Assembly (NCBI RefSeq): GCF_003334765.1
Contig: NZ_QOWT01000001.1
Origin: Escherichia coli
GTDB taxonomy: Bacteria; Pseudomonadota; Gammaproteobacteria; Enterobacterales; Enterobacteriaceae
Length of the DNA: 64,000 nt
Direction: 5' to 3' (one strand)
The position numbers and the translations under genes were made by a program. The notes under the pieces are model-generated. The model ran no database searches and was not told the DNA's origin. It saw only the letters and a list, made by a program, of their open reading frames with translations. Shown here one piece after another: positions 62,979 to 63,053 of the stretch. Each line of letters begins with the position of its first letter. Position 1 is the first letter of the stretch.

Positions 62979-62988
62979 AATATTAACC

Positions 62989-63011
62989 ACTTTAGTTACA
63001 ACATACTTATT
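62989..63011. promoter_or_regulatory. TerB replication-terminator (Tus-binding) site in the tus promoter region
   Basis: Plus strand actttagttacaacatacttatt is the reverse complement of AATAAGTATGTTGTAACTAAAGT (TerB, containing the Ter core GTATGTTGTAACTA), about 10 bp upstream of the tus start codon. Confidence 0.85.
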
Positions 63012-63053
63012 TTATAGCACAGTCGTGGTGACTTGACCATCGTGCGCGTAGTG

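Follow-up and report, generated by a model that had tools for sequence, protein, structure and literature searches.

The TerB site at the rstB-tus junction of Escherichia coli and its relation to fork arrest and tus regulation

The rstB-tus junction and its conservation

The region described here lies at the high-coordinate end of the window, that is, the whole 64-kb stretch of Escherichia coli DNA that was analysed, and carries genes annotated as rstB, tus and fumC. The genes rstB and tus are encoded on the same strand, 75 nt apart, and the interval 62979-63053, to which an earlier sequence-only reading of this DNA had drawn attention, coincides exactly with the 75-nt spacer between them. The features considered in the text are the following (window coordinates).

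62049..62978, minus strand: tus, DNA replication terminus site-binding protein, 309 aa (ATG at 62978, stop at 62049)
62979..62988, minus strand: spacer GGTTAATATT, 10 nt, from TerB to the tus ATG, unchanged in eight E. coli strains
62989..63011, minus strand: TerB, 23-bp Tus-binding replication terminator, exact match, equivalent to 1,684,226-1,684,248 on the plus strand of K-12
63011 and 62989: TerB position 1, on the rstB side (non-permissive face), and position 23, on the tus side (permissive face)
62993..63006, minus strand: Ter core, TerB positions 6-19, GTATGTTGTAACTA, no mismatch to the core consensus GNRNGTTGTAAYKA
63011..63019, minus strand: candidate extended -10, TGcTATAAA (hexamer 63016-63011), putative, from a custom scan
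63034..63039, minus strand: candidate -35, TGGTCA, 17 nt upstream of the -10, putative, from the same custom scan
63054..64000, minus strand: 3' part of rstB, sensor histidine kinase (stop TGA at 63054-63056; the gene continues past the window end)

A pattern search of the 64-kb window with the 23-mer AATAAGTATGTTGTAACTAAAGT returned a single match, on the minus strand at 62989-63011 and with 0 mismatches, and none of 100 dinucleotide-preserving shuffles contained a match even when up to three mismatches were allowed. The exact 23-bp TerB claimed at these coordinates by the sequence-only reading was confirmed on re-alignment (23/23 bases), and the distance of about 10 bp that it had given between TerB and the tus start turned out to be exactly 10 nt (62979-62988), the ATG being at 62978. 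On the opposite side, 42 nt separate the end of TerB at 63011 from the rstB stop codon. The bases read directly place G6 (minus strand) and C6 (plus strand) of TerB both at 63006, C6 being the lock-forming base of Ter (PMC8707476). The site is recognized as a Ter by all 23 bases and the 14-nt core with its G6/C6 pair, by the presence in the same genome of the gene for its cognate protein (tus, 62049-62978), and by an orientation that is permissive to the fork coming from oriC and non-permissive to forks leaving the terminus, the latter based on the GC skew of the plus strand, the sense of TerC and the positions of dif and oriC.

The Tus encoded in the window has the sequence of the protein in the solved Tus-Ter complexes (PDB 1ECR, 2I05 and 2I06; residues 1-309, E = 1.5e-208). 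A mechanical list of open reading frames starts tus four codons earlier, at an in-frame GTG at 62990 that lies within TerB; in all the RefSeq annotations examined the start is the ATG and the protein begins MARYDL. The hexamer AAGTGG (62992-62987), formed by TerB positions 20-23 and the spacer, may serve as a weak Shine-Dalgarno-like element, to judge from its sequence and position. At its other end tus is convergent with fumC (plus strand, 60649-62052), and the 3' ends of both genes overlap by 4 nt (62049-62052), leaving no room for separate terminators.

Positions 62000-64000 of the window (2,001 nt) are the exact reverse complement of K-12 MG1655 (NC_000913.3), and collinearity with K-12 extends to at least 1,733,000. 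TerB fixes the window at K-12 ~1.683-1.747 Mb, in reverse complement. TerB of K-12 has the same 23 bp, flanks, distance to tus and orientation, with no difference at the site itself. Among 5,426 complete E. coli genomes, 5,425 had a match to the segment 61900-64000. A 44-nt segment that runs from the -10 through TerB and the spacer to the ATG was present once per genome in 5,424 of the 5,426, always at tus; it was identical to the present allele in 2,330 genomes and showed about one to three differences in the others. In every respect examined the operator-terminator of this chromosome is canonical and already known. Its value here is that of a map landmark, and nothing departs from the descriptions given since 1989-1992.

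Natural disruptions of the locus are rare. In strain KTa005 (NZ_CP147084.1) the rstB-tus spacer is interrupted at the candidate -35 (break equivalent to window 63038/63039) by an ISEcp1 element with a gene for an MBL-fold hydrolase. In strain 2017.02.03CC (NZ_AP027748.1) rstB is separated by an ISVsa5 (IS4-like) element from tus, which is annotated there with 882 nt vs 930 nt; the regulation of tus should be altered in both. Chromosomal tus was also detected, at 99.7% identity, in NZ_OL790696.1, a 4.8-Mb E. coli record of the PLSDB collection that is evidently chromosomal and was misfiled among the plasmids. One plasmid-typed record of the E. coli genome set likewise carries the rstB-tus region.

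Away from the junction, 10 SNPs over ~49 kb and one clean deletion of 1,039 bp distinguish the window from MG1655. The deletion, at window 53369/53370, removes K-12 NC_000913.3 1,693,868-1,694,906, taking away parts of both uidB and uidA (beta-glucuronidase), and a 4-bp microhomology (CACT) is found at the junction. This junction was not present in one piece in any of the 5,426 complete RefSeq E. coli genomes, hence the deletion looks strain-specific or engineered. In addition, the coding region of rsxC (K-12 b1629; window 39181-39702) contains a 96-bp tandem repeat of 5.4 copies with 91% identity, each unit corresponding to 32 codons in frame.

Polarity of TerB and its place in the fork trap

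On the tus coding strand TerB reads from position 1 (63011) to position 23, and its G6/C6 pair (63006), like position 1, faces rstB. The forks blocked at this site are those that move from high to low window coordinates, from rstB into tus, which are clockwise forks in K-12: as the 23-mer is on the plus strand of K-12, position 1 is the end that a clockwise fork reaches first. For this fork TerC is the first non-permissive site and TerB the second (PMC13220808). The window plus strand has a positive overall GC skew (+0.022), and the cumulative curve rises along it, meaning that this strand is the leading one and that the usual fork travels from low to high coordinates, anticlockwise in K-12. 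This indicates that the usual fork reaches TerB from the tus side, where it meets the permissive face, and it follows from the same direction of travel that transcription of tus opposes normal replication head-on. That the orientation of the site defines which fork is arrested, as had been anticipated from the sequence, was borne out by comparison with the position of oriC on the K-12 map, on which clockwise forks meet the non-permissive face. TerB gives in this way the normal direction of replication through the window and marks the outer edge of the fork trap on its clockwise side.

The scan for additional Ter sites proposed together with the sequence-only reading was performed with the 14-nt core consensus. 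TerB is the sole match with zero mismatches in the window, and no further Ter site was detected when up to one mismatch was allowed. Two one-mismatch cores, one with T instead of G6 (41925-41938) and one with a core T-to-C change (43722-43735), were rejected as Ter sites, being at chance level: three core matches were found in the window vs 1.68 expected, a number reached in 24 of 100 shuffles.

In K-12 no match to the Ter core occurs between 1,635,000 and 1,683,300, and the next core toward the terminus is that of TerC (1,609,162-1,609,175), which shares the strand and sense of TerB. Both cores fit the same 14-nt consensus including G6 and have the same polarity, the TerC core being GGATGTTGTAACTA vs GTATGTTGTAACTA in TerB. 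The full TerC 23-mer differs from TerB at 6 of 23 positions. This fits the 74% identity quoted for the two sites (PMC8707476). TerC is the innermost barrier for the clockwise fork. Of the Ter sites TerA-J, TerB alone lies over a promoter and controls a gene (PMC12809603).

With dif at 1,590,750-1,590,777 and oriC at 3,925,744-3,925,975 in K-12, simple arithmetic places TerB 75 kb outside TerC and ~93.5 kb from dif; relative to TerA, TerB is on the opposite side of dif. The distance from oriC to TerB is 2,400,029 bp clockwise vs 2,241,623 bp anticlockwise, and for a clockwise fork TerB lies ~79 kb past the antipode (the half-genome point). Nearly all of the window belongs to the left replichore and lies beyond the inner fork trap. 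The proposal that the window is located at the replication terminus holds, therefore, with regard to the terminus region, but the location is at its edge rather than at its centre, TerB being the second clockwise barrier.

The candidate tus promoter and the proposed dual role of TerB

Read on the tus strand, the spacer has the structure TGA (rstB stop)-CACTACGCGCACGA-TGGTCA-AGTCACCACGACTGTGC-TATAAA-ATAAGTATGTTGTAACTAAAGT-GGTTAATATT-ATG. A generic sigma-70 scan of 62000-64000 reported no promoter in the rstB-tus spacer; a custom scan gave a single strong candidate, TGGTCA-17 nt-TGcTATAAA, which the generic one missed because the rule applied requires T at position 6 of the -10, the hexamer here being TATAAA. 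The last A of this hexamer is position 1 of TerB. Transcription would be expected to start ~7 nt downstream of the -10, near 63004, that is, inside the Tus-contacted core (62993-63006), and with a start at this position bound Tus would cover roughly +1 to +12, keeping RNA polymerase out. Judged from the sequence, TerB has the placement of an autoregulated operator, since it overlaps the core and expected start of the candidate tus promoter. The assignment of the -35 and -10 hexamers and the start near 63004 are what we infer.

The overlap and the ensuing autoregulation, both predicted in the sequence-only reading, are in agreement with the literature, and the candidate extended -10 ends precisely on TerB position 1. 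Tus autoregulates its synthesis through TerB in the tus promoter (PMC8707476), and the promoter overlap of TerB has been restated more recently (PMC8347550; PMC12809603). According to these later articles, autoregulation was shown experimentally in 1991-92 (Roecklein 1991, PMID 1925016; Natarajan 1991, PMID 2023933; Roecklein and Kuempel 1992, PMID 1495392). As relayed there (PMC8707476; PMC8347550; PMC12809603), the original work (Roecklein 1991/1992; Natarajan 1991) reportedly found higher tus expression without Tus. Footprinting, tus-lacZ fusions in tus+ and tus- cells, 2-D gels and ChIP-seq, from 1989-1992 and afterwards, make up the published experimental basis for TerB and its operator role.

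The conservation of these elements was evaluated in an alignment of eight strains, the window plus seven E. coli chosen across 94-98% identity, all of them related lineages of one species. In 8/8 strains no change was seen in the -35, in the TG extension and the c that follows it, in TerB positions 8-23, or in the 10-nt spacer and the ATG. The -10 hexamer was the same in seven strains, A7 having TATAAG instead. Between the hexamers, the 17-nt stretch changed at up to 9 positions at constant length. Within TerB, only positions 1, 2 and 7 varied, apart from two strains with 1 nt inserted on the 5' side of G6, a base kept in all eight. This pattern would fit a functional promoter joined to a functional Ter core, with the invariance constituting modest evidence because the sampled strains are related.

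The joint conservation of promoter elements and TerB core could also be read as a sign that TerB is chiefly the operator of tus, its capacity for fork arrest being vestigial or a back-up, with TerC 75 kb further in catching the clockwise fork first. In line with this, TerC has the same orientation and is nearer dif, and E. coli has been classified as a 'type II' trap, in which the tus-adjacent Ter is not the innermost one (Toft et al., PMC8707476). We consider this reading decidedly unlikely, given that fork pausing at TerB is significant in wild-type cells (PMC8707476; PMC10331603) and clockwise forks that bypass TerC are arrested at TerB (PMC13220808); regular fork arrest at the native site is already published, on 2-D gel or marker-frequency evidence. 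[quoted passage not shown] Moreover, the operator and fork-arrest roles are compatible with each other.

A different possibility concerns the source of tus transcripts: tus might be mainly expressed by read-through from rstAB, in which case Tus bound at TerB would be a roadblock to transcription elongation instead of occluding a promoter. The proximity of rstB and tus on the same strand would allow it, and, by geometry, it is the non-permissive face that a polymerase arriving from rstB would encounter. A terminator scan of 62000-64000 detected no intrinsic terminator between the rstB stop and TerB, and folding of the RNA comprising the rstB 3' end, the spacer and the tus 5' end gave nothing beyond chance (z = 0.84), so that no attenuator or terminator is indicated in the rstB-tus region. 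This explanation is nevertheless very improbable, considering that the spacer contains a good candidate extended -10 and a conserved -35, and that the hexamers are conserved while the sequence between them drifts, which is the usual footprint of a working promoter. An elongation roadblock could still represent a minor addition to promoter occlusion.

That the match arose by chance or is a non-functional 'pseudo-Ter', as described for TerF, TerH and TerJ, has practically no probability, for although weak core look-alikes do arise by chance (as those at 41925-41938 and 43722-43735, at the level of the shuffles), this reading is refuted by the exact 23/23 match, by its failure to appear in 100 shuffles, by its occurrence at the same place beside tus in 5,424/5,426 genomes and by published binding data, in which TerB has the highest Tus-GFP ChIP-seq coverage among the Ter sites (PMC8707476).

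Altogether, the stretch 62989-63011 is almost certainly TerB of the E. coli chromosome, acting both as a polar fork barrier and as the tus operator. The present analysis shows which site this is, where it lies and how it is oriented, that it is universal in E. coli, and that promoter-like elements adjoin it, with the conservation described above; Tus binding, the lock mechanism, fork arrest and repression are taken from the literature. According to this dual-role model, monomeric Tus, encoded immediately downstream, would bind TerB. A fork progressing from rstB into tus, which would be a clockwise fork that has gone past the terminus and escaped TerC, would unwind the DNA up to the GC(6) pair, whereupon C6 (plus strand, 63006) would flip into a pocket of Tus, the complex would become locked and the DnaB helicase would stop. 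The usual fork, coming from the tus side, would meet the permissive face and displace Tus. With the -10 of tus abutting TerB and the start predicted inside the Tus-contacted core, Tus on TerB would exclude RNA polymerase and tus would be repressed, resulting in negative autoregulation. TerB represents in this sense a textbook case of a single DNA site that is at once a replication barrier and a transcriptional operator.

An extension of the dual-role model, which we regard as rather doubtful, would be that, with the permissive face of Tus-TerB turned toward tus, the anticlockwise fork strips Tus from TerB once per round and gives rise to a brief, replication-timed burst of tus expression as forks arrive at the terminus. 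In parallel, the Tus-TerB roadblock would insulate tus from rstAB read-through, an idea suggested by the fact that the rstB-tus junction is without a terminator.

Related arrangements in other chromosomes and in plasmids

An autoregulatory arrangement similar in concept to TerB-tus exists in Bacillus subtilis, where the terminator protein RTP represses its own gene, rtp, via a nearby terminator. RTP has a fold unrelated to that of Tus and binds as a dimer to bipartite sites. The autoregulation of rtp was reportedly the subject of work by Ahn et al. in 1993.

Among Enterobacterales, a tus-adjacent Ter with C6 is conserved (PMC8707476). In the 'type I' traps of Edwardsiella, Dickeya, Proteus and Yersinia, a site named Ter1, with C6, is located just upstream of the tus ATG and is 74-87% identical to TerB; in these traps the tus-adjacent Ter is also the innermost one, whereas E. 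coli and Salmonella have an additional inner site, TerC (PMC8707476).

Plasmids are known to carry mobile tus genes (Galli et al. 2019), and a Tus homologue with ~29% identity was detected by tblastn in 1,282 plasmid records, largely of the IncC type and conjugative. A search beside these distant plasmid homologues for the Ter core of the E. coli type yielded only matches at chance level, which were rejected. A different motif, TGCATGATGGTCTA, was absent at two other plasmid loci (L017 and L018) and was found as an inverted pair preceding the tus homologue in the IncC plasmid NZ_CP007636.1 (locus L015, 1196-1209 and 1414-1427) and in the Pseudoalteromonas plasmid NZ_CP011027.1 (locus L016, 1226-1239 and 1411-1424). 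In both plasmids the copies are 171-188 nt apart and flank a CT-rich tract, and the proximal one is placed ~55-60 nt before the ATG, with the same orientation to the gene as TerB to tus. This proximal copy loosely resembles the Ter core (GCATGATGGTCTAAA vs GTATGTTGTAACTAAA), and the TGCATGATGGTCTA copies may be the cognate Ter-like sites of the plasmid proteins.
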